A stretch of DNA of 31,955 nucleotides from a virus (lineage: Duplodnaviria; Heunggongvirae; Uroviricota; Caudoviricetes): the IMG/VR virus record IMGVR_UViG_2713896775_000007, positions 1-31,955 of that record; one strand, 5' to 3'. Positions 1-19,986 of this stretch are shown piece after piece (the stretch's first letter is position 1; each line of letters begins with the position of its first letter). Both the position numbers and the translations under genes were made by a program. The notes beneath the pieces are model-generated. The model saw only the letters and a list, made by a program, of their open reading frames with translations, was not told the DNA's origin and did not search any database.

Positions 1-46
1 GCCACGGGAGCACCTCAAAAACACCATCATACACTAAATCAGTAAG

Positions 47-1387
47 TTGGCACCATTACCCAAGTTTATTGAAGCAGACTTTGGGCTGAATGTGGCAATG
101 CGTATAGCTAATGATGAAAATATTTTGCTCAAGAAAAGTAGATTCTTTTGTGGGGGAAAGAGTCAGGAGGCATCGTCATATTCACAGTTTGTGCAAGGAT
201 CATATTTTCCTGGCGAATCCATCGAACATCTTAAAACAAAAGCCAAAGAAACTGACAAGTGGGGATGTAATAATATAACTTTTTCTGATTCAATACAGCT
301 AAGTTTAGATGGTGCCCCTACTGCATTAGTAGACGTCTTCAATGATATTGATTCTTCGTTGGCAACCAAAGAGAAAATCGAATTTCCTAAATCGGAAAAA
401 ATCACTGACGAGTCAAAGATAGATGAGCTTGATAATTATCTACTTCAATCGATCATTAAAGATGATGTAAATGTTATTATAGATGAGATTCAATCTTTTG
501 GTGCCTCTATTGTAATTAATAATTCTTTGACATTTTTTAAATTGCACACAAAAGTTGAGGGGAGTGGAAAGTATCTTCAATCAGCAGATAAGGTTAATGA
601 CATAAAAATAACAGATGTTAAGCAATTTATAAAAAACAACGACATAAAGGATGTCAATAAAGTTTTTGTTAAGATAACTAATGAAAATAACAGTGGTCAT
701 ACGGCCTCGCTAAAAGAAATATTGAGTATTACTTATAGCGATGGCAGTGAGCACTACTTCCTTAAGAGGGGAGGGTGGAGTCGATTTAACTCTGCCTTTA
801 TGAAGTATTTGTCTACCTCTTTAGCCAGTATAAAATTTGAGGTTAAAGATGCTCTAAAGGAAGACGACTTCAAAGCATGGCAAGCTGAAAAAATAAAACA
901 AATCGAAGAAGGAACTTCTAAAGACAAATTAGAATATAGAGAGTACTATTTTAATGAAAAGATGTCTGTTGAGAAAGGTTATATACTTCTAGATCGCCAG
1001 CTCAAAAAAATACCATCCTTACGTGATGATGGAAAGGACTACAATGTTGAAGTTGCAGATCTTTATAAAAATGGAGAGATTATTGCTGTAAAGATATCAG
1101 ATAAACCGCATGATCTAATTTATAATATTGAGCAGTCAAAAACTACAATTCAAACTATAGTAAGAGGAGTAGTAAAATTTGAAGAGAAAATTACTGATGT
1201 GGTTTTATGGATCTCAACTACTACAAAAGCCAAAAAATTGATTGACATCAATTCTATCCAATTTTTATTAGCGGTTCAAACTTGGAAGGAAGTTGTTGAA
1301 GGATTTAATTTGAAACCAAAGATATATTATTCGCATCACGACAAACCCAAAAAGAAAAAGGAAAAGAAAAAGCCAAAAAACGGTTGA
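47..1387 (+). CDS. Hypothetical protein, 446 aa, lysine-rich C-terminal tail (HHDKPKKKKEKKKPKNG); no recognisable catalytic motif
   Basis: Long uninterrupted ORF bounded by an in-frame stop at 35..37; TTG at 47 or ATG at 98 as start; AT-rich; convergent with the downstream operon. Confidence 0.5.
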   Translation: MAPLPKFIEADFGLNVAMRIANDENILLKKSRFFCGGKSQEASSYSQFVQGSYFPGESIEHLKTKAKETDKWGCNNITFSDSIQLSLDGAPTALVDVFNDIDSSLATKEKIEFPKSEKITDESKIDELDNYLLQSIIKDDVNVIIDEIQSFGASIVINNSLTFFKLHTKVEGSGKYLQSADKVNDIKITDVKQFIKNNDIKDVNKVFVKITNENNSGHTASLKEILSITYSDGSEHYFLKRGGWSRFNSAFMKYLSTSLASIKFEVKDALKEDDFKAWQAEKIKQIEEGTSKDKLEYREYYFNEKMSVEKGYILLDRQLKKIPSLRDDGKDYNVEVADLYKNGEIIAVKISDKPHDLIYNIEQSKTTIQTIVRGVVKFEEKITDVVLWISTTTKAKKLIDINSIQFLLAVQTWKEVVEGFNLKPKIYYSHHDKPKKKKEKKKPKNG

Positions 1388-1648: not shown

Positions 1649-3469
1649 TTATTTGAAATGAATTAAACCATAGTTGCCTCTTAATTCATTATCAACAAGA
1701 GTAAAGTTCGTCATTTCTCTGTCAAGCCAATAAGACTCTTCAATATGCTCTAACAGTATTATTTGGAAACCACCATGAGACCGCATTTTCTCAACAAAAG
1801 AATTAATTTCATTTAGGGCTGCATCAAGACTTGCAAAGTCATCAGTTTTTTTACCAGCAGTACTAAAATATGGAGTGCTGGGCTGGTCAATGACTAAGAA
1901 TCGTGGAACCCACGGTACTTTTCTATCTCTTACCAATTCGTGAAGTGCAAGGAAATAAGCTACATGTACATACATATAGTTAGAAGCACTTCCAATATCT
2001 ATCATTTTTTCAACTTGATTTTTATTTATTAAATCAAGTGTTTTTTTTGCCTTGTTGAATATCGGAGTTGCATCCTCAAATCCTTTTAAAGGCATCCGTT
2101 TGAATATTTCCTTTATTTTTCCGTTCAGTAAACTCAATGTATATTCTTTAAAGGCATTATTATCTGTTATCTTGCTTTCTAACTCATTAATTTTAGTAGT
2201 TATCTTTTCTATAGTATCAGTATAATCATATTTAGGGAGAACAACTATCCGTTTAATTTCAGAGCTGAGTTCACCCATGAACCGATAAAGCTCGATTGGC
2301 GTGATTTTTTCATCACTAACAGTTGCAAGTTTTTTACTCAAGGATGATATTTTAAGTTCTAACTCTTTTCTCTTAGCATTTGTTTTTGATATGAGTGAGT
2401 TTTGTCCTTTTTCGGCTATAGCCTTTTTTATCTCTGAGCTTTGGTTCAATAAGGATTTAATGATTGAATAGATTTTTTTTGTATATAATATTTCGCTATA
2501 ATTATCATCTAGATATTTGGCTATTAAAAGAGAGTCTTGGTTATCTTTTAAAAACTTCTTATATTCAGTATTTGTTTCTATATATTCATTAATGTCTGTC
2601 AGTTCTTTTTTTAAGAGGAAAAGTTCTTTTTCAATTTTTGTTCTTTCATTAATTGCTGGGATTTCGTTTATATCCTTGTAATTAACTATCGCTTTCAAAT
2701 TTTCAAGTTTATCACTTACAGTTGGTTCATTCTTGCTGTTTTCACTTATTAAACCAAAATAATACGCCCTGTCGTATAGTGATTCTATTTCACTTTCGAA
2801 ATTGAAATAAGAGTCTTTGCTAGCCGACTGTTTATATTCGATACGAGCAAGATTCCTTTGTAATTCTTCTAACCGCGTTCTCATTATCATAGTTTCGGCG
2901 TTTTCACTGCCAAGAGCCATGTCAAAGGTTCGGTCAATACGCTCTCTTGTCTTTAAATCAGAGATTTTCGAATAAAGATGTTCTGAAGAGGTTAGTGTTG
3001 TTTGATCTATAAAGCAATGCGGGATAAAATATCTATAGGATACTTTTGACCCTTGTTGTATGAATCTACCACCATAAGGGATTTTTAGAGAACTATTAAT
3101 ACCAAACTCATAATTCAGATGTTCTTTTAAAACATCCTTTTTGATATTGTTAATAGGGATTTGTGGAATGCCTCCATTTTTGTCAAAGTAAACTAGATCA
3201 TCTTCTTCAAAGTGTGTCGCTTTTCTACAAATAGTGAAATATTTACCGTTTATACTTAATCTAATCCCATACCAATTTACAAAATTATCGACATTTGTTT
3301 TTGATATACCATCAGATGATGAGGATAAAAGGCAATAATCAATGATAGCCAGTATTGAGGATTTCCCTTTGCCAGAATCACCTGTTATTACATTTACCTT
3401 ATTTTCCTCAAGTTCTAAATTCCTCAAGGTTGAATCAATTTGCCATATTAAAATATTAGTAATCTGCAT
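1649..3469 (-). CDS. SMC/Rad50-like ABC ATPase with coiled-coil insert; LmuB-like ATPase component of a Lamassu/ABC-3C system
   Basis: N-terminal Walker A GDSGKGKSS; long K/E/L-rich central segment (coiled coil); C-terminal Walker B-like RFLVIDQPS and H-loop-like QIILLEH; 1-nt overlap with upstream gene. Confidence 0.7.
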   Translation of the reverse strand: MQITNILIWQIDSTLRNLELEENKVNVITGDSGKGKSSILAIIDYCLLSSSSDGISKTNVDNFVNWYGIRLSINGKYFTICRKATHFEEDDLVYFDKNGGIPQIPINNIKKDVLKEHLNYEFGINSSLKIPYGGRFIQQGSKVSYRYFIPHCFIDQTTLTSSEHLYSKISDLKTRERIDRTFDMALGSENAETMIMRTRLEELQRNLARIEYKQSASKDSYFNFESEIESLYDRAYYFGLISENSKNEPTVSDKLENLKAIVNYKDINEIPAINERTKIEKELFLLKKELTDINEYIETNTEYKKFLKDNQDSLLIAKYLDDNYSEILYTKKIYSIIKSLLNQSSEIKKAIAEKGQNSLISKTNAKRKELELKISSLSKKLATVSDEKITPIELYRFMGELSSEIKRIVVLPKYDYTDTIEKITTKINELESKITDNNAFKEYTLSLLNGKIKEIFKRMPLKGFEDATPIFNKAKKTLDLINKNQVEKMIDIGSASNYMYVHVAYFLALHELVRDRKVPWVPRFLVIDQPSTPYFSTAGKKTDDFASLDAALNEINSFVEKMRSHGGFQIILLEHIEESYWLDREMTNFTLVDNELRGNYGLIHFK

Positions 3470-3915
3470 TATAATCTAACTCCACAAATGTCATATATAT
3501 TGTGTGGTTCTTCTAATAATAAACGTGCAACGTTTATAGATGCTGCCTGTATTTTTACGGCTCTTTTGCCAATAAACGGGATCGCATTATCTAATATTAA
3601 CTTGTTTTTAAATGCTAATTTACCGTGTTCTAATTCAGCTATTCCATTTTCAAGGCACAATGAAACACAATTAACTGAGGATGGAAGGAAATTATAGAAT
3701 CTTTTATTTATGGATACTATTATTTCGGGCTTGGTTAAAAGTAGATCTTGAAAAGATAGTGTATTGGTTCTCTTGTGGGCAAGGTAATCTAAGCTTTTTT
3801 TATGAAATATAATTGGTAAAATTAGCATTGCATTGCTTATTTCAATATTTGATGCTATTGATAACACCTCTTGCAAAGAGAATATACCCAAAAGCTCATT
3901 GTTATATATTTTCAT
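3469..3915 (-). CDS. Small middle component (LmuC-like) of a three-gene Lamassu/ABC-3C operon
   Basis: 148-aa ORF sandwiched between effector and ATPase with 4-nt (ATGA) and 1-nt overlaps, implying translational coupling; size and position fit the middle component. Confidence 0.5.
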   Translation of the reverse strand: MKIYNNELLGIFSLQEVLSIASNIEISNAMLILPIIFHKKSLDYLAHKRTNTLSFQDLLLTKPEIIVSINKRFYNFLPSSVNCVSLCLENGIAELEHGKLAFKNKLILDNAIPFIGKRAVKIQAASINVARLLLEEPHNIYDICGVRL

Positions 3916-5111
3916 TTATAGACTGACTCCCAGTTTTGAAGCCATCCTATTTTGGGCTTATCTGAAAGGAGCAAGAACGTTCCTGTAGTCATAGATTTAG
4001 GTAATTGATTTTTATCCAACACAATATTACAGTTTCCTGTCAATTCAGTATAGACAGAGAAGGCTTTATTAAGATGATCTTCATTTATTTCTGTAAAACG
4101 GCTTCGTATATACGTTGCTGAATGACGTGATTGCCATTCATCAAGCGCTTTTAGATATATTAGTCTTTCTTCTTGAGTTGTTAAATCTCCAGAGCTTTGC
4201 AATTTTTGAATGAAAGCTTCTGTTTTGGCCATTTCATTTATATATTTTACGATTGAATCGCTATTCAAATCCAAATCTTTGAGTTGTTTGTAAGATATCT
4301 TTGATTCAACGTTAGTTGGGTATGCAGATTCAAAATCGTAGTATTGGTCGAAATTATTTATACAATTTCTTGAAATTTGAATAATCCTATCTATTCCCAA
4401 ATTATTTCGAAAATCATCATAACTTATATTTATTTTGGTGTGATTTTTAACCAAATCATATTTATGTTTAAAAAAAGCACCTGAAATATAATTAAAAGCA
4501 TCATCTATTTTATCATCAGGGATTGCTAATGTTTTTAGTAATGTTTTTATTTGGCGGATGATCCCATCTTCGCTATGTTGAAAACTTATACTATTAAATA
4601 AACGTTTAGAAGAATTGCTATCGAGTGAGTTTATGATAGAAATATACTTATAAAGGTCATCTGACTTATTTTTATGATCTTGTTCTATCTTTTCTATTTC
4701 ATCTTTTATTTTTTCAATGTCCTTAGTGTCGTTAGTCAAAAGTTGCACGATACCAGGCTCTAAGGTAAGACCTTTGTTAGTGTAAAAAATAAGGCTAATG
4801 CTTTTGTCGCCTATGGTCTTAATCGCCTCTGACCAATTATATAATGTTTTCCATAAGTCTATGTCTTTATTAGTTATATTAGACTTGTTAATTGAATGTT
4901 TAACTTGAACCAAAGTTTTATGACCCTCGATGCTCTCAAGATGGAGATCGTCATAAACTTCAATCCCAATGTGTTCTTCTGGTTTAAGCTCTAAGGCATG
5001 TTTTAAAGCAACGTAATCTTGATAGGTAAAACCTATTGAATTTTTGTCAGCATTAGTTTTTTCAAAGAAATCCATATGGTAGCCCACTAAGGAAACAAGC
5101 AATGAAAGCAT
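3912..5111 (-). CDS. Effector component (LmuA-like) of a Lamassu/ABC-3C system; N-terminal region compatible with a PD-(D/E)xK-type nuclease
   Basis: 399-aa ORF, first gene of the operon; N-terminal IGIEVYDDLHLE...LVQVKHS resembles a D...(E/Q)xK nuclease signature; start uncertain (ATG at 5111 or 5075). Confidence 0.5.
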   Translation of the reverse strand: MLSLLVSLVGYHMDFFEKTNADKNSIGFTYQDYVALKHALELKPEEHIGIEVYDDLHLESIEGHKTLVQVKHSINKSNITNKDIDLWKTLYNWSEAIKTIGDKSISLIFYTNKGLTLEPGIVQLLTNDTKDIEKIKDEIEKIEQDHKNKSDDLYKYISIINSLDSNSSKRLFNSISFQHSEDGIIRQIKTLLKTLAIPDDKIDDAFNYISGAFFKHKYDLVKNHTKINISYDDFRNNLGIDRIIQISRNCINNFDQYYDFESAYPTNVESKISYKQLKDLDLNSDSIVKYINEMAKTEAFIQKLQSSGDLTTQEERLIYLKALDEWQSRHSATYIRSRFTEINEDHLNKAFSVYTELTGNCNIVLDKNQLPKSMTTGTFLLLSDKPKIGWLQNWESVYK

Positions 5112-5325: not shown

Positions 5326-6555
5326 TCAAGCAGCGATAGCTTTAGCTCTTTGAGTTTGAACGTAATCACTCCACCATTGCATCAAACTCTGTCGTTCTAT
5401 CAGATATTCTGCACGATTGTATGCTGCGATAATTTCATCTTTTTTAGAGTGGGCGAGTGCTGCCTCAAGAACTTCAGCTCTGAACTTACCAGACTCCTCT
5501 GCCGCTGTTCTTGCAATCGAACGCATACCGTGAGCTACAAGTTCGCCTCCAAACCCCATTCGGATAATAGCTGCGTTGGCTGTTTGTTCATGCATATGAT
5601 TAAGAGGCGCTTTAATGCTGGGGAAAACCCATTCTCTATGCCCACTTATTGATTTCATTAATTCAAGGATGTGCAAAGCTTCTTTACTCAAAGGAACTTT
5701 GTGAGGCTTTTTCATTTTCATAAAATCAGCAGGAATGTTCCAAATGTTGTTGGTTGTATCAATATCAGACCACCTTGCGCGAACGGCTTCACCCGGACGA
5801 ACCCATGTCAACAATTGCCATTCAATTAGCATACGTGTTTCCAGCCGGATTGACGCATTCGTCAAAGATTCCATAAACCTTGGCAATTCGCTTGGGGGAA
5901 GGGCAGGCATATTTTGCTTTTTTGGTTTACTGAATCTTTGACCAAGGTTGTCAGCCGGATTGAACTCAATAAGTTCTTCAGTGGCTGCCCACCGGAAGAT
6001 TTCATTCAGACGTGAAATGATGCGGCGTAGAGTTTCCAATACGCCTCGTTGCTCAATAGGATCAAGGTGTTGTTTTAAGAGCTTAGGTCGGATCTCATTG
6101 ATAGGGACATTACCCAGGCCAGGAAAGACATTTCTCTCTAAGCTGCGCCAGATGTCTGCTGCATGGTCTTGTGAGATACCTGAGGTCTTTACCTTCTCAT
6201 CCAACCATTTCCTTGCCACGGCTTGGAGAGTGTGTTCAGTAGCATTCTTTAAGGCATTAGCTTTATCGTTGTTATGAACTTGGGGATCAATGCCATTAGC
6301 AAGCAAGGAAAGGTATTCATCTCGTAAGGCTCTGGCTCTTGCCAGTGTAAGGTGAGGATATGTCCCAAGGCTCATTTTGGTTCTTTTTTTACTGACTGGC
6401 ACTGCATACCTGAAATACCAATTCTTCTTTCCTCCTTTCGAGAGGGGAGCGATTCGTAGTATCAAACCATCTCCGTCAAACAAGTTGATTTCTTTGTCGG
6501 CTGGCTTGGTGCTTTTGATTTCAGTGTCAGTGAGCTTCTTAGCGATTTTTGCCAT
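5326..6555 (-). CDS. int: Tyrosine integrase, P4/CP4-57 (IntA) type
   Basis: N-terminal arm-binding-like region (TDTEIKSTKP...LFDGDGLILRI...WYFRY) and C-terminal catalytic region with R...H..R...Y-type residues (HGMRSIART...AYNRAEY); likely start at the internal ATG at 6555 rather than the longest ORF at 6597. Confidence 0.85.
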   Translation of the reverse strand: MAKIAKKLTDTEIKSTKPADKEINLFDGDGLILRIAPLSKGGKKNWYFRYAVPVSKKRTKMSLGTYPHLTLARARALRDEYLSLLANGIDPQVHNNDKANALKNATEHTLQAVARKWLDEKVKTSGISQDHAADIWRSLERNVFPGLGNVPINEIRPKLLKQHLDPIEQRGVLETLRRIISRLNEIFRWAATEELIEFNPADNLGQRFSKPKKQNMPALPPSELPRFMESLTNASIRLETRMLIEWQLLTWVRPGEAVRARWSDIDTTNNIWNIPADFMKMKKPHKVPLSKEALHILELMKSISGHREWVFPSIKAPLNHMHEQTANAAIIRMGFGGELVAHGMRSIARTAAEESGKFRAEVLEAALAHSKKDEIIAAYNRAEYLIERQSLMQWWSDYVQTQRAKAIAA

Positions 6556-6652
6556 TTTGGGACCCTCGGTTTTTGGACCCTTCTTAGTGGGTCCCATTCA
6601 GGGTGCCATAAGTGATAGTTCTCAGCAATTCTCACTGGACGACAATAGACGT

Positions 6653-6720: not shown

Positions 6721-6765
6721 TGGTGGAGCTGGCGGGAGTTGAACCCGCGTCCGAAATTCCTACAT
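6721..6765 (-). other. ssrA: 3'-terminal fragment of a tmRNA (ssrA)-like gene; probable attachment-site repeat
   Basis: Minus strand reads ATGTAGGAATTTCGGACGCGGGTTCAACTCCCGCCAGCTCCACCA: tRNA-like T-arm and acceptor 3' strand ending CCA, matching the E. coli ssrA 3' end as recalled; adjacent upstream sequence is AT-rich and not tmRNA-like. Confidence 0.75.
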
Positions 6766-6878
6766 ACTATTTTTACTGTAATAAAAACAGTGAATTACGT
6801 TTAAAAACAGTCCTTTAGTGTTATTTGCTGTTTATATGTTTTATGCGTTTTTAATGCTCTGCCGCCACTTTGTCGCCA

Positions 6879-7937
6879 TTAAATGCGCTGGTCATTTGAT
6901 ATAGGTAAAATGCTTGTAAAGAGTTTTTCGTCATATAGTGCGTACTCAGGTATGTAATCACCATTGCTTTTACCTGTTTGGAAGATAGAGGGGTCCTTGT
7001 CGATTAAAACATATAACTCAATGAGAATATTTCTTAGTCCCCAAAGCATTTGCTTTAGTTGTTTTTCATCATTGAATGAGATGCTTATGGCTTCCGTATC
7101 TGGTTTTGGATGTTCAGGAATTATTGAGAAAAGATGTTCTTGGTATTTATAATCAATTCCAAGTAGTCTGCAAAGTTGAATTATGTTTGATTCTATGAGT
7201 TGTAGGCTAACTAATTGGTTGTCATGATTTTTGTTGTTGGACTTAAGCGATTTGTTTATGTTGTTATAATGATTTGTTGTTTTTCGAATAAAATCTTCTT
7301 CGACAGCGGTGCTATAGCCATTATCAATGGAAGATGATTTGAAAATATTTTTATAAAGAGTGTACGGATGAACTACAGATAGTTCAATACTGTCTATATC
7401 ACTAGTTTCTTTATTTAATCTTGATAATTTAAATGTTGGTAGTGTTTGGAATATATCAGCGAAGCTTTTCAGATGTGAGTAATATGAATCAGTGGTGTTT
7501 TTTTCAATAATAAGATTGATTTGCTTTTGTGTTTTTTCTATTTGGTTCTCTGTTTGTGTGGTTCTATGTATATTGTTGACGATTGCTGCAAGAGGTACCG
7601 AAGAAGCTAAAATAAATAATGGCAATTTAGAGATGTCAAGAAAGTGATTAAAACCGTCTGATGTGAAATTTAAATTGTGGCCTTTCCAAGCCCAGAGGCC
7701 ATACAAAACAAACATTTTTAACGGTACGATAATAGATGCTATGAATAATGGTTGTTTTAATAGATTTTTCTCATTTAGTTTAAGCCAATTGAAGCAATAG
7801 AACATAAGTATCAATCCAAGTATATAAGCTACACTAAAGAAGATAAAAACTCTTGGACGATTAGTGTATATCAATGCTAAGGCAATTAAGATGGTAATGA
7901 TTGCGTAGGTAATGATTAATGTGAGTTTTTTTTTCAT
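6879..7937 (-). CDS. Hypothetical membrane protein (about 4 N-terminal TM helices plus ~230-aa soluble C-terminal domain); moron downstream of the prophage integrase
   Basis: ORF begins 4 nt after the integrase stop; hydrophobic segments LTLIITYAIITILIALALIY, VFIFFSVAYILGLILMFYCF, LFIASIIVPLKMFVLYGLWAW, LPLFILASSVPLAAIV; AT-rich; start 7937 or 7979. Confidence 0.5.
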   Translation of the reverse strand: MKKKLTLIITYAIITILIALALIYTNRPRVFIFFSVAYILGLILMFYCFNWLKLNEKNLLKQPLFIASIIVPLKMFVLYGLWAWKGHNLNFTSDGFNHFLDISKLPLFILASSVPLAAIVNNIHRTTQTENQIEKTQKQINLIIEKNTTDSYYSHLKSFADIFQTLPTFKLSRLNKETSDIDSIELSVVHPYTLYKNIFKSSSIDNGYSTAVEEDFIRKTTNHYNNINKSLKSNNKNHDNQLVSLQLIESNIIQLCRLLGIDYKYQEHLFSIIPEHPKPDTEAISISFNDEKQLKQMLWGLRNILIELYVLIDKDPSIFQTGKSNGDYIPEYALYDEKLFTSILPISNDQRI

Positions 7938-7941
7938 TCTA

Positions 7942-8958
7942 TTAAACCAAATTATGTAAAGGATTTTTTGTAACAGCATCTTCTAGATGGTCTGGAGAAA
8001 AGTGTGCGTAAACCATCGTCATTTTTATATCGGCATGGCCCAATATTTCTTTAAGGACAAGAATATTCCCGCCATTCATCATAAAATGACTGGCGAATGT
8101 ATGACGCAGCACGTGGGTGCATTGGCCCTCTGGTAGCTCGATGCCTGCTCGCTTTACTGCTCGTTCAAAGGCTTTTCTGCACGGTGTGAATAGTTTCCCT
8201 CTGTTCTTGGGGAGTTCATCATACAGATTTTGAGATATCGGCACGGTACGATTTTTCTTACCTTTTGTCTTGGTATAGGTGATCCGGTATTTTGATAACT
8301 GATGGCCCTGCAAGTTTTCTGCTTCACTCCATCGCGCACCAGTAGCCAGGCATATTTTTGCAATCATTAGTAGGCTGGTGTTTTGAGATTCGGCGCAGGC
8401 ATTAAGCAGGCGTTTGATTTCGTCCGTGGAAAGAAAAGCCAATTCACCTTCAGCAATTTTGAAGGTTGGAAGCCCTGCCAGCGGGTTTGGTGCGGACCAG
8501 TGCCCTAGTTTTTTCAATGTACCGAACACCGATGACAGGTTACGCTGCTCAAGATTAACTGTGCGAGGTTTAACGGGTGACATGAACGAGCCGTCTTCAT
8601 TTTGGACCTCCCCCTTTAATCTGGCTTCCCGATATTTTGTGAAATCACCTGCTGTCAGCTCAGAGGCGATGGGATCGCCTAGACCATTACAGATAATTCT
8701 AAGTTTCGCCATCAGGCGTTTGGGGTCTGCGAGTGTTTGACCATATAGGGAATACCACTGCTCAATCACTTCTGATAATCGCCGCCGATCTTCCTTCTCA
8801 CCAAGCCATGGCTTTTTGTTTACTTCGTCCATGGTGAAGCTTTCAAATGCAATGGCTTCGCCTTTGGTAGCAAATTGCTTACGCACGCGCTTACCATTGC
8901 GTCCATTGGGATAGCACTCACACAACCATTTTCCGTTCGGCTGTTTTCTGATGGTCAT
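7942..8958 (-). CDS. int: P2-type tyrosine integrase
   Basis: 338 aa; conserved blocks GRNGKRVRKQF, TGARWSEA, HVLRHTFASHFMMNGGNILVLKEILGH...MVYAHF. Confidence 0.9.
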   Translation of the reverse strand: MTIRKQPNGKWLCECYPNGRNGKRVRKQFATKGEAIAFESFTMDEVNKKPWLGEKEDRRRLSEVIEQWYSLYGQTLADPKRLMAKLRIICNGLGDPIASELTAGDFTKYREARLKGEVQNEDGSFMSPVKPRTVNLEQRNLSSVFGTLKKLGHWSAPNPLAGLPTFKIAEGELAFLSTDEIKRLLNACAESQNTSLLMIAKICLATGARWSEAENLQGHQLSKYRITYTKTKGKKNRTVPISQNLYDELPKNRGKLFTPCRKAFERAVKRAGIELPEGQCTHVLRHTFASHFMMNGGNILVLKEILGHADIKMTMVYAHFSPDHLEDAVTKNPLHNLV

Positions 8959-8961
8959 AAG

Positions 8962-9600
8962 TTAGAGGTTCTTGATTACTTTGACTGCACGTCCTACGAC
9001 TTCCACATCATCTACAGAACATTCAAATGAAGTGTCATCTTGGTTAACTACTATTTTGTTTCCGGGTATGCGCGCAATTTTGACGATGCTTTTAACTCCG
9101 TCCATATCGACTAACCAGAAGCCATTACTGACTTGTTTAACGGACGTATCCACTACAAAGCTATTATTAGCTGTTTTAACAAATAAAGCGTTGGATGAGT
9201 CACCATCGAGCAGGCTGCTATCAAGAAGAATTTCATCACTTGCCTGCAGTTCGCCGTTCTTCAGTTCAACACGTTTGATGCTAGGAGCAACGATCTTAGA
9301 AAGTGGTCTTACAGTGACGGGAGGTTCATTTTTGAGATTTGTTTCTTCGTTCTCACACGCATACATATCTCCTTGACCAGTAGCCAGCCATAGAAGGGAA
9401 ACTCCTGTTTCAAGGGCACATTGAATTACCCATTCGGCAGGAAAGCTATCCCTTAAGTATCTGTTAGCCATAGTGCTTTTGGATACCTCCAGATGTTCGC
9501 AGAGCTGCTGTCGTGAGCTGAAGTTGTAAGCCTTAATAAGCCTGTTAATTGCATCGCGCCCACCACTATCATTTCCCGCCTTGATCAAACTCATAATCAA
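8962..9600 (-). CDS. cI: CI-type immunity repressor (phage 186 CI family)
   Basis: N-terminal HTH block RYLRDSFPAEWVIQCALETGVSLLWLATGQG typical of 186-type CI; divergent from the early lytic promoter. Confidence 0.8.
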   Translation of the reverse strand: MIMSLIKAGNDSGGRDAINRLIKAYNFSSRQQLCEHLEVSKSTMANRYLRDSFPAEWVIQCALETGVSLLWLATGQGDMYACENEETNLKNEPPVTVRPLSKIVAPSIKRVELKNGELQASDEILLDSSLLDGDSSNALFVKTANNSFVVDTSVKQVSNGFWLVDMDGVKSIVKIARIPGNKIVVNQDDTSFECSVDDVEVVGRAVKVIKNL

Positions 9601-15685: not shown

Positions 15686-15999
15686 GAAACGTTGCCCCCA
15701 GGAGGATTCATTCTGAAGGGGGCTAGTTTGGGCAACGAGTGAAATAAGGTGTAAGGTCATTTTGATAAATGATCGTCTGCTTTGTGCAAGATGCAAACGT
15801 TTCTTCTGCTAACTTTCGTTAATTAACGAATGGCAGACTAATTCGCAACGGATAATCTGAATTTTGTAAGATTATGGGCATTTCTATAAAATTTACTAAT
15901 AATAACCTTACAATGTACACTACCGATTGAATTTTCCATAGTTGGCCTTTGGCTCTACTTACCATCTATGTTTATGTATTTTATCAAAATGGACTAAAA

Positions 16000-17892
16000 A
16001 TGAACAATACGTACATCAAAGACTATATAGAATATTACCTTAGCCTTACAACTGAACCTCAATACGCCATTATGCTTAAAGGTGCTTGGGGATCAGGTAA
16101 AACTTGGTTCATTGAACAAGTTCTTGAAGAATATAAGCAGAAGAATTCAGAGTTTAAATTTCTAAAAGTGAGTTTGTATGGCGTCAACTCTATTAAGCAG
16201 ATTGAAGATGAGTTCTATCGTCAACTTCATCCTGTCCTATCAAACAAAGCCCTTATCTTTGGTGCAAATGTACTAAAAAATACGCTTAAGGCTACTTTCA
16301 AGATCGATCTCAATGGCGATAATAAATCTGACGTTGATGTCAATACCAATGTTCCCACCATTAATCTTAACGATTTTAGTAGAAAACCAGATGGTTTTGT
16401 GCTGGTCTTTGATGATATCGAGAGAGCTGGTATAGATTTACCAATTTTATTTGGATATATAAACCACTTTGTAGAAGTAAACGGATACAAAGCGATCTTG
16501 GTTGCCAATGAAGAAGAAATAATCAATAGAGAAAAGCGAATAAATAATGATGATGAGAAATCTAGCAGCGAATACATGAGAACAAAAGAAAAGCTTGTTG
16601 GTAAAACATTTGAAGTAACGTCAGATTTACATAGTGCTTGTAATGTTTTTTTGGGCGTAATTAGCAGTTTACACGTTGCTAATATATTTAAAGAAGATAT
16701 GCAGGCCATAGAAGACATCTATGTGTCGGCGAAATATAATAATCTAAGACACTTGAGGCAGTTCTTTCTTGATGTACAACGCATCATTTCCCTTTTTGGA
16801 AATAAATATGTCAGCAACGACGATTTTATGAGGGTATTTTTCCAGCAGTTGTTAATTTTCTCGATAGAGTACCGGGGAGGGAACCTTAACTACGAGGAAT
16901 TCGATTCAATCAGCAATGTTAATTATGGTATGTTTTTAGGTAAAGAGCGTACCAAAACTAAGTATGACATGATCGTCGAGAAATATTCATCTCCTGTATT
17001 AACCGAGAAGTTACTGGATGGTGCGTACTGGAGGGAGCTAATCTGTGATGGAAAGGTAACGAGTGAACTTCTCGCTCAGTTGGATATTACGCGATTTTTT
17101 AGAAGCACCGATGCCCAAGCATGGGAGTATTTGTGGAACTATCGAGAACTTAATGAAACTATGCTTAATGAGCAGTACGCCATTGCCAAGGATAATCTAT
17201 TTTCAGGTAAGATCACTTCCTTAGGTGAACTCCTGATGACCGCGAGTATTTTGCTGGACATGGCGAAAGAAGGTCTAACAACAGATGATGTTCATGATCT
17301 CATAAATGAGACAAAACAGAATATAAATAATTATTATAATAGACTTAGAGCTGAAGATATACATAAGGAATATGCGCAAACGCATTATAACGAATTAAGG
17401 GCATGGCGTGGCTTTGGTTTTCTTGACAGGGATAGCGATGAATTCAAACTCATTATTGAGCATATTGAGATAGCGAAGAAGAAACGGTTTGATGAATCAA
17501 TTCCGGAATTTGCGTTGCAGTTCAGCGATGAGTTGCAAAGGGGAAACTTATCGTTTGTATCTGAATTGAGTCATTCTAATAATAGGCAGTTAAATCTTCA
17601 TAACGTGCCTTTTTTACACTTGGTTCCTCCTGAAGTTTTCATTGAAAGCTATAGGAAACTTGACCCAGTCCTCATGAGGAAACTGGCATTTAGCTTGCGG
17701 AATCGTTATTCTGATGGGGATGCTAGAACCAGACTGACCGAAGAATACAACTGGTTGATTAACCTAAAAGAGATAGCTGTAGATTTCACTCAAAACGCAG
17801 CCAATAACTCCTTTCAGGTTTTTCACGTAAAGTTTTTTATTGACTATGTATTAACTAGCGCAATCAAATTCTTTACTGAGGGAACTGATTAA
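16000..17892 (+). CDS. KAP-family-like P-loop NTPase (cargo; candidate anti-phage gene)
   Basis: Walker A GAWGSGKT and Walker B VLVFDDIER (hhhhDD-x-ER, KAP-like) about 115 aa apart; large helical C-terminal region; AT-rich; likely start ATG 16000. Confidence 0.75.
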   Translation: MNNTYIKDYIEYYLSLTTEPQYAIMLKGAWGSGKTWFIEQVLEEYKQKNSEFKFLKVSLYGVNSIKQIEDEFYRQLHPVLSNKALIFGANVLKNTLKATFKIDLNGDNKSDVDVNTNVPTINLNDFSRKPDGFVLVFDDIERAGIDLPILFGYINHFVEVNGYKAILVANEEEIINREKRINNDDEKSSSEYMRTKEKLVGKTFEVTSDLHSACNVFLGVISSLHVANIFKEDMQAIEDIYVSAKYNNLRHLRQFFLDVQRIISLFGNKYVSNDDFMRVFFQQLLIFSIEYRGGNLNYEEFDSISNVNYGMFLGKERTKTKYDMIVEKYSSPVLTEKLLDGAYWRELICDGKVTSELLAQLDITRFFRSTDAQAWEYLWNYRELNETMLNEQYAIAKDNLFSGKITSLGELLMTASILLDMAKEGLTTDDVHDLINETKQNINNYYNRLRAEDIHKEYAQTHYNELRAWRGFGFLDRDSDEFKLIIEHIEIAKKKRFDESIPEFALQFSDELQRGNLSFVSELSHSNNRQLNLHNVPFLHLVPPEVFIESYRKLDPVLMRKLAFSLRNRYSDGDARTRLTEEYNWLINLKEIAVDFTQNAANNSFQVFHVKFFIDYVLTSAIKFFTEGTD

Positions 17893-18197: not shown

Positions 18198-18304
18198 GCG
18201 CGCTGTATGCCTGAAGTGGCTAAAATAGTATCTGTCATAGGTACAACTTAGTGTAGTATCATCCATATAATCCATTGAAATATAATCGACTCTCATTAGA
18301 GGTG

Positions 18305-19303
18305 ATGATGAACGGAATCTGGTACGAAAACACTCATACACGCATTCCTAATTTTGAAACAACAGTACATCAAAAGCACAAATTCGGTTACGCTTATGAA
18401 ACAACAAGTCATTTTGTGCATCTGTATGGGCGTGACGTGGGATTTAATGTAATATCAGTTGGGTTAACTGTTATTGAGCAACGAAGTGGAACTCTCAATG
18501 ATTGGGTTCGGAGAGTATTTGGGGCTCAGAACATATCTCCTTTAGATAATGAAATTGGACATGTAACTAGGGGAGTGTGGCGGCCATCCTTATATTATGT
18601 CAATGATACAGAAACAGCATTAGGTATCGATGAGTTTGAAAAAAGAGCAACAGAGCAAGCTCTAAGAGTTTTGATAGAAAAACTCGATGATATTTTTCTA
18701 TATGTAGAACCAAGTGCCCATGGTTTGATTTCTTACAGTCATAAATGTAGAGAGCTATTAATTCTTGCTTGTACTGAGGTTGAAAATCAATGGGTGTCAA
18801 TCATTGGTAATTCGAATTTATCTCGTTCAAATGGTCGATACTCCACAAATGATTATGTGAAATTATTAGATAAGTGTTATTTGTCTGAATATAAAATTCA
18901 ATATTTGAATTATGACGGATTAAGGCATTTCAAACCTTTTGATGGGTGGAATGCAAGTACCCCTACAACATCTTTGTCATGGTATAATGCATATAATAAA
19001 ACTAAACATGATAGATCAGGAGCATTCCACTTTTCCACTTTAGAAAATGTAATGGATGCAGTTGCTGCTTGTGTTGTAATGTACTGTGTAAAATATGGCC
19101 CGTTTAGCTTATTGGAAGCCAATACGTCTCTATCAACGATCGTTAATCAAAACTTTTCAATTTCATTAGATAATAGCAATCCAGCAAGTTATTACATTCC
19201 TGAAATTGAACTTCCACCGGATACAAGAACGGATTTATTAATTTATGATTGTTATCGAGAAAACCATAATAAAGCATGGGTCACTGATCCCCTAGTGCTC
19301 TAA
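18305..19303 (+). CDS. Hypothetical protein, about 333 aa (cargo); possible HEPN-like Rx4H motif (speculative)
   Basis: AT-rich ORF after the cos-like block; C-terminal KTKHDRSGAFHFSTLENV contains R-x4-H; start ATG 18305 or 18308 (ORF track begins at TTG 18275). Confidence 0.55.
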   Translation: MMNGIWYENTHTRIPNFETTVHQKHKFGYAYETTSHFVHLYGRDVGFNVISVGLTVIEQRSGTLNDWVRRVFGAQNISPLDNEIGHVTRGVWRPSLYYVNDTETALGIDEFEKRATEQALRVLIEKLDDIFLYVEPSAHGLISYSHKCRELLILACTEVENQWVSIIGNSNLSRSNGRYSTNDYVKLLDKCYLSEYKIQYLNYDGLRHFKPFDGWNASTPTTSLSWYNAYNKTKHDRSGAFHFSTLENVMDAVAACVVMYCVKYGPFSLLEANTSLSTIVNQNFSISLDNSNPASYYIPEIELPPDTRTDLLIYDCYRENHNKAWVTDPLVL

Positions 19304-19359: not shown

Positions 19360-19986
19360 TTATATATCAATAGAGTTTTGAAATTTTAATAACTGCCATC
19401 TTGTTAATAGTGGTTTTATTGCTATGTTGTGTTGGGTATTTATTTTTAAACCTTCGAATTTCGAATATCCATTTTCCAAGGCTTCCACTGAAAAATGAAT
19501 GGTTTTTGTTATCGGGTTTATAGCACAAAGATTTAGGTCATATAAAGTATGAATGTCACTTCTGAGCAATAATCCATTGCTAATATGATTGTGACTATCG
19601 TTTCGATATACATTAATGTGAGCAGCATCAAGAATATCAACAAGCTTACAGCCCATAACCGCACAAGTAGGATTTGATTTTAATAGCTGGTCGCGAAATG
19701 TTTTTTGCCCACTTCGTTGTTTTATTTGCCGTTCTACAATTTGCCGTTGATCTTCACCCATTAAAGTGGGGGTGTCTTTATCAGCTTCGCTGGCGTTGAG
19801 CTCCAGAATAATAGTATGTTGGGCGGTAAGCAAAGCAACAGCCCATTGATAGTTAACTTCTTGGATGGACATTTGCCCATTGTAGCGTGGAGTTTCATCT
19901 ATAAATTGTGACATTGTAATATTGGATAATTTACGGTACTGGTTGCCGCAGTATGCTATAAATTCTTTAGCTGGCTCAAAAACCAC
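19360..19986 (-). CDS. HNH endonuclease domain protein (C-terminal portion of a probable frameshifted gene)
   Basis: CAVMGC...AAHINVYRNDSHNHISNGLLLRSDIHTLYD is an HNH signature; this frame stays open upstream of the GTG at 19986 back to a stop at 20077..20079. Confidence 0.7.
   Translation of the reverse strand: MVFEPAKEFIAYCGNQYRKLSNITMSQFIDETPRYNGQMSIQEVNYQWAVALLTAQHTIILELNASEADKDTPTLMGEDQRQIVERQIKQRSGQKTFRDQLLKSNPTCAVMGCKLVDILDAAHINVYRNDSHNHISNGLLLRSDIHTLYDLNLCAINPITKTIHFSVEALENGYSKFEGLKINTQHNIAIKPLLTRWQLLKFQNSIDI

Follow-up and report, generated by a model that had tools for sequence, protein, structure and literature searches.

An IS1-truncated gene of the DUF6119/TIGR04141 family in an ssrA-linked defense island: a probable pseudogene whose intact relatives frequently follow hxsDBCA

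Introduction

HXS is an antiphage system of four genes, hxsDBCA, that blocks the entry of phage DNA through HxsA, a periplasmic protein matured by radical S-adenosylmethionine (SAM) chemistry (Li et al., Nat Commun 2026, PMC13128918). The subject of this study is a reading frame at positions 47 to 1387 of a 31,955-nt stretch of viral DNA (positions 1 to 31,955 of IMG/VR record IMGVR_UViG_2713896775_000007; hereafter, the window), which belongs to the DUF6119/TIGR04141 family and lies beside an operon of a second described system, Lamassu (LmuA/LmuB/LmuC, ABC-3C type). The family is already catalogued and its intact alleles are annotated in RefSeq, but it is uncharacterized. Further systems with which it can be compared are effectors with a PD-(D/E)xK fold, such as the CdiA-CT EC869 DNase, HamA of Hachiman, Cap4/LmuA, NucS, and type II restriction enzymes.

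A preliminary description of the window, made from the DNA letters before any database search, presented the frame as an unassigned 446-amino-acid protein with a poly-lysine tail and raised the possibility of a single-gene defense or counter-defense function. The comparisons reported here point to a probable pseudogene, the promoterless 3′ part of a longer gene interrupted by the insertion sequence (IS) IS1, whose intact relatives often stand directly after hxsA and carry a predicted nuclease-like domain.

Results

The reading frame begins inside the end of an IS1 element

The plus strand of the window is open from 47 to 1387, giving 446 codons when counted from a TTG, and the region is as AT-rich as had been described (GC content of 0.31 to 0.35, against 0.55 to 0.60 over much of the window). 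It does not, however, encode a natural 446-amino-acid protein, since its start lies inside an IS1 end and the intact gene encodes 544 amino acids. Bases 1 to 60 (minus strand) are identical at all 60 positions to the terminal, transposase-proximal 60 bp of IS1 copies annotated with an IS1 family transposase in many Escherichia coli records; used as a query, they matched 9,345 records, 884 of these at 99% identity or more. At one annotated IS1 copy (locus L047), the transposase coding sequence starts within the first five matched bases and points in the direction opposite to the flank, and the last matched base is also the last base of the IS, after which the split host gene picks up. Both the terminal inverted-repeat sequence and, by way of L047, the geometry of the adjacent transposase identify the element in the window as IS1; it continues leftwards past the window edge, with the transposase gene itself beyond it.

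A megablast comparison of positions 1 to 1700 with 5,426 complete E. coli genomes gave matches other than to the IS only from base 61 on, and direct alignment to NCTC9040 placed the breakpoint at 60/61. The TTG at 47 and the first five or so codons are IS1 sequence, with an in-frame TAA upstream at 35 to 37, and homology to the intact gene starts only at 61; positions 47 to 60 (plus strand) are best read as an artefactual, IS1-derived start. The 446-codon length thus appears, from the sequence, to be due to chance, as no stop codon interrupts the frame over the 14 bases that it reaches into the IS1 end. An independent metagenome contig in the European Nucleotide Archive (ENA; ERZ24930544), on which a gene caller placed the start at ATG98 to give 429 amino acids, has the identical junction between IS1 and the gene and likewise breaks inside IS1. 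As the junction is common to two independent assemblies, the allele is real and not a misassembly. The junction was absent from all 5,426 complete E. coli genomes in the megablast comparison. Searches for the far side of the element retrieved plasmid matches to IS1 only, and the single ENA contig with the junction also terminates in IS1.

The interrupted gene belongs to the DUF6119/TIGR04141 family

The frame is not unassigned. The remnant scores 82.5 bits against Pfam PF19614 (DUF6119; cutoff, 27 bits; E value, 3.6e-23) and 68.5 bits against NCBIfam TIGR04141, named “sporadically distributed protein” (cutoff, 35 bits), so that both curated hidden Markov model cutoffs place it in the family. 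The intact gene, present in NCTC9040 and 1332KP, has 1635 nt and encodes a 544-amino-acid “DUF6119 family protein” (WP_126325728.1), to residues 102 to 544 of which the window remnant is 99.5% identical. Positions 61 to 1387 (plus strand) correspond to codons ∼103 to 544 and the stop; 441 native codons remain, with no internal stop or frameshift, while about 103 N-terminal codons, the first 308 nt of the gene, are missing together with the promoter and the ribosome-binding site. The profile matches begin accordingly at position 101 of 524 (Pfam) and 98 of 516 (NCBIfam), the first ∼100 profile positions being absent owing to IS1. This segment comprises the entire first domain of the protein, in which the motif SLGKSHFY is nearly invariant, and it holds 15 of the 67 positions that are invariant in the closer alignment (A3). 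The single-protein architecture of 515 to 555 amino acids that holds for nearly all of the 120 best homologues, drawn from a collection of 5.8 billion proteins, is therefore lost from the window copy through the IS1 end at base 60.

Taken together, the sequence comparisons make truncation of this gene by IS1 almost certain. With the first domain gone and the promoter lost, a function for this open reading frame (ORF) is unlikely, and the copy has most likely lost its activity and become a pseudogene; the fuller account, in which 61 to 1387 is the promoterless 3′ remnant of a 544-codon DUF6119/TIGR04141 gene interrupted by IS1, is probable as a whole. The otherwise undamaged frame fits a recent insertion. 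The locus resembles other IS1 insertion pseudogenes in that the gene is cut at the exact IS1 terminal repeat and runs by chance in frame into the IS, and differs in that only one IS end falls within the window, the target-site duplication and the 5′ part of the gene being out of view.

It is very unlikely that the remnant still functions as a shortened protein, started at ATG98 or TTG47 and expressed from a chance promoter or an outward one associated with IS1, which would keep domains 2 to 4, including the nuclease-like domain described below, and serve as a single-gene defense or a toxin. In its favor, the 441 native codons form an open frame that is 99.5% identical to the intact version, the C-terminal domain has lost none of its five invariant residues, and two independent assemblies share the allele. 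Set against this, an N-terminal domain that every full-length homologue keeps is wholly missing, a consensus scan found no plus-strand promoter-like site upstream of TTG47 or ATG98, and the IS1 transposase is transcribed in the opposite direction, away from the remnant. The absence of decay is equally well explained by recent insertion of IS1, and a probable pseudogene remains the preferred reading of the window copy.

Disruption in otherwise identical islands, which the preliminary description had named as evidence against its own proposal, was found both in the window and in ECC-1470 (L039, 5001 to 7888), where the DUF6119 gene is split by ISEc52 in an independent IS strike on the same island. 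In 1332KP, IS3 disrupts hxsB (L003, 2529 to 3691) and IS1 lies within the spacer between DUF6119 and LmuB (7417 to 8114). The island is prone to IS damage. The DUF6119 gene of O55:H7 CB9615 (L002, 7693 to 9505) is labeled “frameshifted” in RefSeq and yet reads through an uninterrupted 543-amino-acid ORF, for which reason the label was rejected as a sign of decay. Its product is as long as the Klebsiella/Raoultella protein P0001 and nearly identical to it, only the tail differing, and the flag seems to be due to the variable A-rich tail sequence.

The lysine-rich tail is a variable appendage

The basic tail that had been described is present, the final 14 residues being KPKKKKEKKKPKNG, encoded by an A-rich tract (1345 to 1384, plus strand). 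Comparison of the tails of the 120 homologues showed that the conserved core ends in ...LKPKIYISKH and that most homologues stop 2 to 4 residues later, with lysine-rich extensions of 8 to 15 residues in Enterobacterales and some Pseudomonas. Homology between the window and the O55:H7/Klebsiella allele breaks at ∼1372, inside the tail, for which no regular secondary structure was predicted. A poly-lysine tail as the defining functional feature of the protein was rejected, as it is not conserved, though the tail may add nonspecific affinity for nucleic acid. A role directed at nucleic acid, one of the possibilities that had been drawn from the tail, agrees with the predicted C-terminal domain.

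The family is small, sporadic, and recurrently placed after hxsA

HMMER, run exhaustively over 1.84 billion cluster representatives, retrieved only 277 clusters (50% identity) at an E value of ≤0.001, and the DUF6119 family is small and sporadic, with one architecture. Within it, the window clade is a divergent branch that scores ∼90 bits against PF19614, compared with ∼420 bits for the clade typified by XJ5.2/H6. Plasmids yielded 2 Bacillus megaplasmids among 72,556 records, and phage genomes gave three weak matches in 50,697 records. The counter-defense function that had been raised for this frame was rejected on account of the latter figure. The phage matches lie in the 282-kb Staphylococcus phage SA 1306 Kay (H130, OR844989.1, 184759 to 185886), in a 3.5-kb related Staphylococcus phage record, and in one fecal phage contig; these DUF6119-like ORFs are distant (∼23% identity; E values of 2e-7 to 6e-6).

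In NCTC9040, 1332KP, and O55:H7 CB9615, hxsD-hxsB-hxsC-hxsA and the DUF6119 gene stand in that order on one strand, with 68 nt between hxsA and DUF6119, and across intact islands the same-strand gap from hxsA measures 18 to 68 nt. hxsDBCA lies directly upstream in 10 of 31 species-level loci, among them those of Dryocola and Photorhabdus, whose DUF6119 proteins are 42 to 43% identical to that of the window. E. coli hxs loci that do not have the window-type allele often carry a TIGR04141 protein of the XJ5.2/H6 type 18 to 20 nt past hxsA, which BLASTP does not link to the window clade at an E value of <1e-5, yet which reaches the ∼420 bits on PF19614 noted above. The same order of hxsA and then DUF6119 recurs in Enterobacter hormaechei within a mobilizable element, and in all, three deeply divergent DUF6119 clades occupy the slot after hxsA. 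In the complete E. coli genomes, hxs is present in 155, the window-type DUF6119 gene in 29, and the XJ5.2/H6 type in 72; ∼101 of the 155 hxs-positive genomes have a family member. DUF6119 thus goes with the hxsDBCA module and not with the convergent Lamassu operon, and the linkage is frequent, evolutionarily persistent, and facultative rather than universal. The window itself has no hxs genes, and IS1 stands at the place where they would lie.

Members of the mainstream, ∼420-bit clade follow hxsA at L035 (7419 to 9023), L037 (7417 to 9024), and L040 (6001 to 7605), in elements with RepB/ParB, a serine recombinase, and a relaxase. Their proteins are also lysine rich at the end (…KKKICKPKKK), though BLASTP gives no alignment between them and the window clade.

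The same-strand position after a gap of 18 to 68 nt, the retention of the slot over three clades, two of which BLASTP does not link, and the presence of a family member in about two-thirds of hxs-bearing E. coli genomes would all suit a true fifth HXS accessory, cotranscribed with hxsDBCA and dependent on it, which might for example degrade DNA that stalls or leaks at the HxsA barrier, or regulate or repair HXS. Such a role is nonetheless unlikely. All four hxs genes are needed, the validated operon, whose source is strain MEM, is active in MG1655 when cloned as four genes without DUF6119, and more than 99.8% of HXS systems are reported as four-protein systems, with the downstream gene going unmentioned (PMC13128918). 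DUF6119 is therefore outside the four genes with which HXS was defined and validated, although in intact islands it is next after hxsA. It also occurs without adjoining hxs in 21 of the 31 species loci and in Vibrio, Pseudomonas, and Marinomonas, hxs is found without it, and no signal peptide is present in DUF6119, whereas HXS works through an effector in the periplasm, HxsA.

A predicted PD-(D/E)xK-like domain at the C terminus

The structure of a full-length relative, P0001 (96% identical), was modeled with AlphaFold2 (mean predicted local distance difference test [pLDDT] score, 83.4; predicted template modeling [pTM] score, 0.76), and residues are numbered here according to this protein. 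The model shows four alpha/beta domains, at ∼1 to 120, 124 to 235, 261 to 358, and 361 to 530. The last of these (pLDDT of 92 for its own model) is complete in the remnant, at positions 833 to 1342 of the window (plus strand), and is predicted to adopt the alpha-beta-beta-beta-alpha-beta core of the restriction-endonuclease-like, or PD-(D/E)xK-like, fold. The earlier statement that the protein lacks a recognizable catalytic motif holds at the level of sequence and is qualified by this predicted fold.

An alignment of 73 members that share 19 to 41% identity leaves just seven invariant columns, G340, W342, E397, E433, D436, K447, and Q461, and five of these fall in the C-terminal domain. In the model, the first core helix carries E397, the second strand and the stretch just before it carry E433 and D436, the third strand carries K447, and Q461 is on the helix that follows it. 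All seven are kept in the window copy, in which G340 and W342 belong to the stretch RGGWSRFN and the other five are domain positions E37, E73, D76, K87, and Q101. The modeled layout of invariant residues would match the pattern of a PD-(D/E)xK active site but for one difference: the strand reads (S/A)-V-K, with Ser or Ala two residues before the Lys, and not (D/E)-x-K. Active restriction enzymes of the Cfr10I/NgoMIV/Bse634I type have an S-x-K variant and recruit the acid from elsewhere, and enzymes of this type are present among the fold-search matches. By analogy, E433, E397, and the near-invariant E442 and E460 could be candidate suppliers of the acid.

With the PD-(D/E)xK effectors, DUF6119 thus has in common a predicted core fold, on whose elements invariant acidic, Lys, and Gln residues stand where they would be expected. 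It differs from them in having no detectable sequence kinship, in its noncanonical triad, and in the fusion of the domain to three N-terminal domains. A profile search of PDB sequences returned only noise, and a Foldseek search of the PDB with the full model gave no match at an E value of ≤0.001 and hence no solved full-length relative. On the strength of the model and the invariant residues, the chance that the intact family acts as a nuclease seems about even. It is improbable that the domain is instead an inactive PD-(D/E)xK-like fold that only binds nucleic acid or a ligand, in a protein that acts as a sensor or regulator: two Glu residues and single Asp, Lys, and Gln residues that stay strictly invariant at 19 to 41% identity are what one would more often expect of a catalytic site, and the S-x-K enzymes among the matches are active.

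The surrounding island and its Lamassu operon

The ORF at 47 to 1387 is convergent with the LmuB gene, as had been described, across a 261-nt spacer (1388 to 1648) that is plausibly of terminator type. RNA folding gives a 10-bp stem (1495 to 1504 with 1517 to 1526) followed by the T-rich run TGTTTATT, together with further hairpins, and a consensus scan places one terminator-like site at 1585 to 1604. The 12-nt loop of the hairpin at 1495 to 1526 is reverse complemented relative to that in NCTC9040 (L001, ∼9435 to 9466), TATGTGAAACTT versus AAGTTTCACATA, with identical stems, a difference that looks like a small palindrome-mediated inversion.

The Lamassu operon (1649 to 5111, minus strand) comprises LmuB (1649 to 3469), LmuC (3469 to 3915), and LmuA, a Cap4-type nuclease (3912 to 5111), with PADLOC E values of 6.6e-84, 8.8e-07, and 2.7e-43, respectively, and Pfam matches to DUF3732, MC3, and, weakly, Cap4_nuclease. 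Besides the window, five E. coli genomes have DUF6119 adjacent to and convergent with Lamassu, but DUF6119 has no homology to any Lmu protein (no PADLOC Lmu match), and the Lamassu cassette is exchanged for other cargo in related islands while DUF6119 persists: the space between DUF6119 and the integrase holds Lamassu in Buttiauxella as well as in the five E. coli genomes, and in O55:H7, Klebsiella, and Raoultella it holds a small hypothetical gene. Lamassu stands beside DUF6119 in a minority of loci, and a role as a Lamassu accessory gene was rejected because the linkage is not conserved. The defense-island setting that had been put forward is supported by the ssrA island, by Lamassu, and by HXS in relatives, with the correction that the conserved partner is hxsDBCA.

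The island also has a tyrosine integrase (5326 to 6597, minus strand) with Pfam matches to Arm-DNA-bind_3, Phage_int_M, and Phage_integrase. In NCTC9040, its counterpart, 99.8% identical, adjoins ssrA. Alignment with the NCTC9040 integrase-ssrA region identified the 3′-terminal ∼47 nt of ssrA at 6721 to 6768 (minus strand), an attachment-type duplicate that marks the island end. Scans for tRNA and transfer-messenger RNA (tmRNA) and against Rfam returned no match of any kind in the window, and hence no complete tmRNA. The arrangement is that of a defense island linked to ssrA and, in tandem with it, an integrated prophage, the intact tmRNA gene lying outside the window.

The prophage is P2-like and starts at 6769, with an integrase (7942 to 8958) and a CI repressor (8962 to 9600). 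It carries several AT-rich cargo genes: one for a 366-amino-acid protein without a Pfam match beside the phage integrase (6879 to 7979, minus strand), one for a 647-amino-acid KAP-family P-loop NTPase (15949 to 17892, plus strand) followed by one for a 342-amino-acid protein without a Pfam match (18275 to 19303, plus strand), and one for an HNH_2 endonuclease (19360 to 19986, minus strand). These resemble hotspot cargo and may be candidate defense genes.

Elsewhere, the neighbors of DUF6119 include Hachiman (L013), a Lamassu-like system (L016), CBASS (L029), and the PADLOC candidates PDC-S54 and PDC-M43. It stands beside Mrr and a type I restriction-modification system in Vibrio, SRA-HNH and HigBA in Pseudomonas aeruginosa, and ParDE pairs in Marinomonas. 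A pair of hypothetical genes encoding 419 (WP_000377565) and 347 (WP_000723546) amino acids flanks hxs in E. coli islands (L001, 1336 to 3640, minus strand; L035, 1110 to 3414, minus strand), and homologues of the pair (36% and 30% identity) lie immediately upstream of DUF6119 in Pseudomonas fragariae (L020, 7014 to 9512, plus strand). They may be a two-gene module that travels with DUF6119; their assignment to a known system was rejected, as neither Pfam nor PADLOC gave a match.

The frequent presence beside it of integrases, a relaxase, ParB/RepB, a resolvase, transposases, and toxin-antitoxin pairs, together with the sporadic and seemingly horizontally transferred distribution over 277 clusters, could also mean that DUF6119 serves the mobile element, as a nuclease or DNA-binding factor for the maintenance, transfer, exclusion, or addiction of an island or plasmid. 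Defense systems ride the same elements, however, so this context does not discriminate; the family is rare on plasmids (the two Bacillus megaplasmids), no mobility gene is conserved as a neighbor, and solitary copies sit amid housekeeping genes with no mobility gene adjoining. We consider this role distinctly unlikely, a little more so than that of a fifth HXS component.

Discussion

In the mechanism that we infer, the intact protein would be a cytoplasmic, stand-alone product of ∼530 amino acids with four domains and no signal peptide. Its N-terminal alpha/beta domains would bind or sense nucleic acid, and its PD-(D/E)xK-like C-terminal domain would perform metal-dependent cleavage of nucleic acid, most likely DNA. 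The protein might then be an effector of phage defense, working by itself or, in possible cooperation with HXS, as a second, cytoplasmic line of protection behind the barrier that HXS forms in the periplasm. A defense role for the intact family is possible, at somewhat less than an even chance. The more specific proposal, that the family is an antiphage nuclease of a new multidomain architecture, acting by itself or, in an HXS island of five genes, as a second layer in the cytoplasm, is more tentative still. Single-gene defense, as first suggested for the window ORF, is reasonable at the level of the family, which recurs beside defense genes in other genera, and does not extend to the window copy, which is disrupted.

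Several observations weigh against this view of the locus and its family. About one-third of E. coli hxs loci have no DUF6119 gene, most species-level DUF6119 loci have no adjoining hxs, and the four hxs genes suffice for activity; in addition, many solitary DUF6119 copies lie by housekeeping genes, such as those for MetRS, HrpA, or a GGDEF protein. The canonical (D/E)xK triad is not present literally, and a permissive Pfam scan (E value of ≤1) of the 73 diverse members gave no recurrent second family and no link to a nuclease family. PADLOC, which has no model of DUF6119, matched neither the remnant nor the full-length protein, and a literature search for DUF6119, TIGR04141, and “sporadically distributed protein” returned nothing on the function of the family or on experiments with it. 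For the window copy, only one side of IS1 is in view, so that a simple insertion and a deletion both fit, and some residual expression of the remnant from a fortuitous promoter may occur.

For the annotation of the window, the outcome is that 61 to 1387 is to be entered as an IS1-disrupted DUF6119 pseudogene, and not as a 446-amino-acid defense candidate grouped with Lamassu. For the family, the wider point is that DUF6119/TIGR04141 is the commonest gene directly after hxsA, whereas HXS was characterized without it. If the proposed second-layer role is true, the destruction of DNA that gets past HxsA would explain why three divergent alleles hold the slot after hxsA, and the window copy would be a recently inactivated example. 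The intact gene could add a new single-gene defense or reveal a layered protection of periplasm and cytoplasm.

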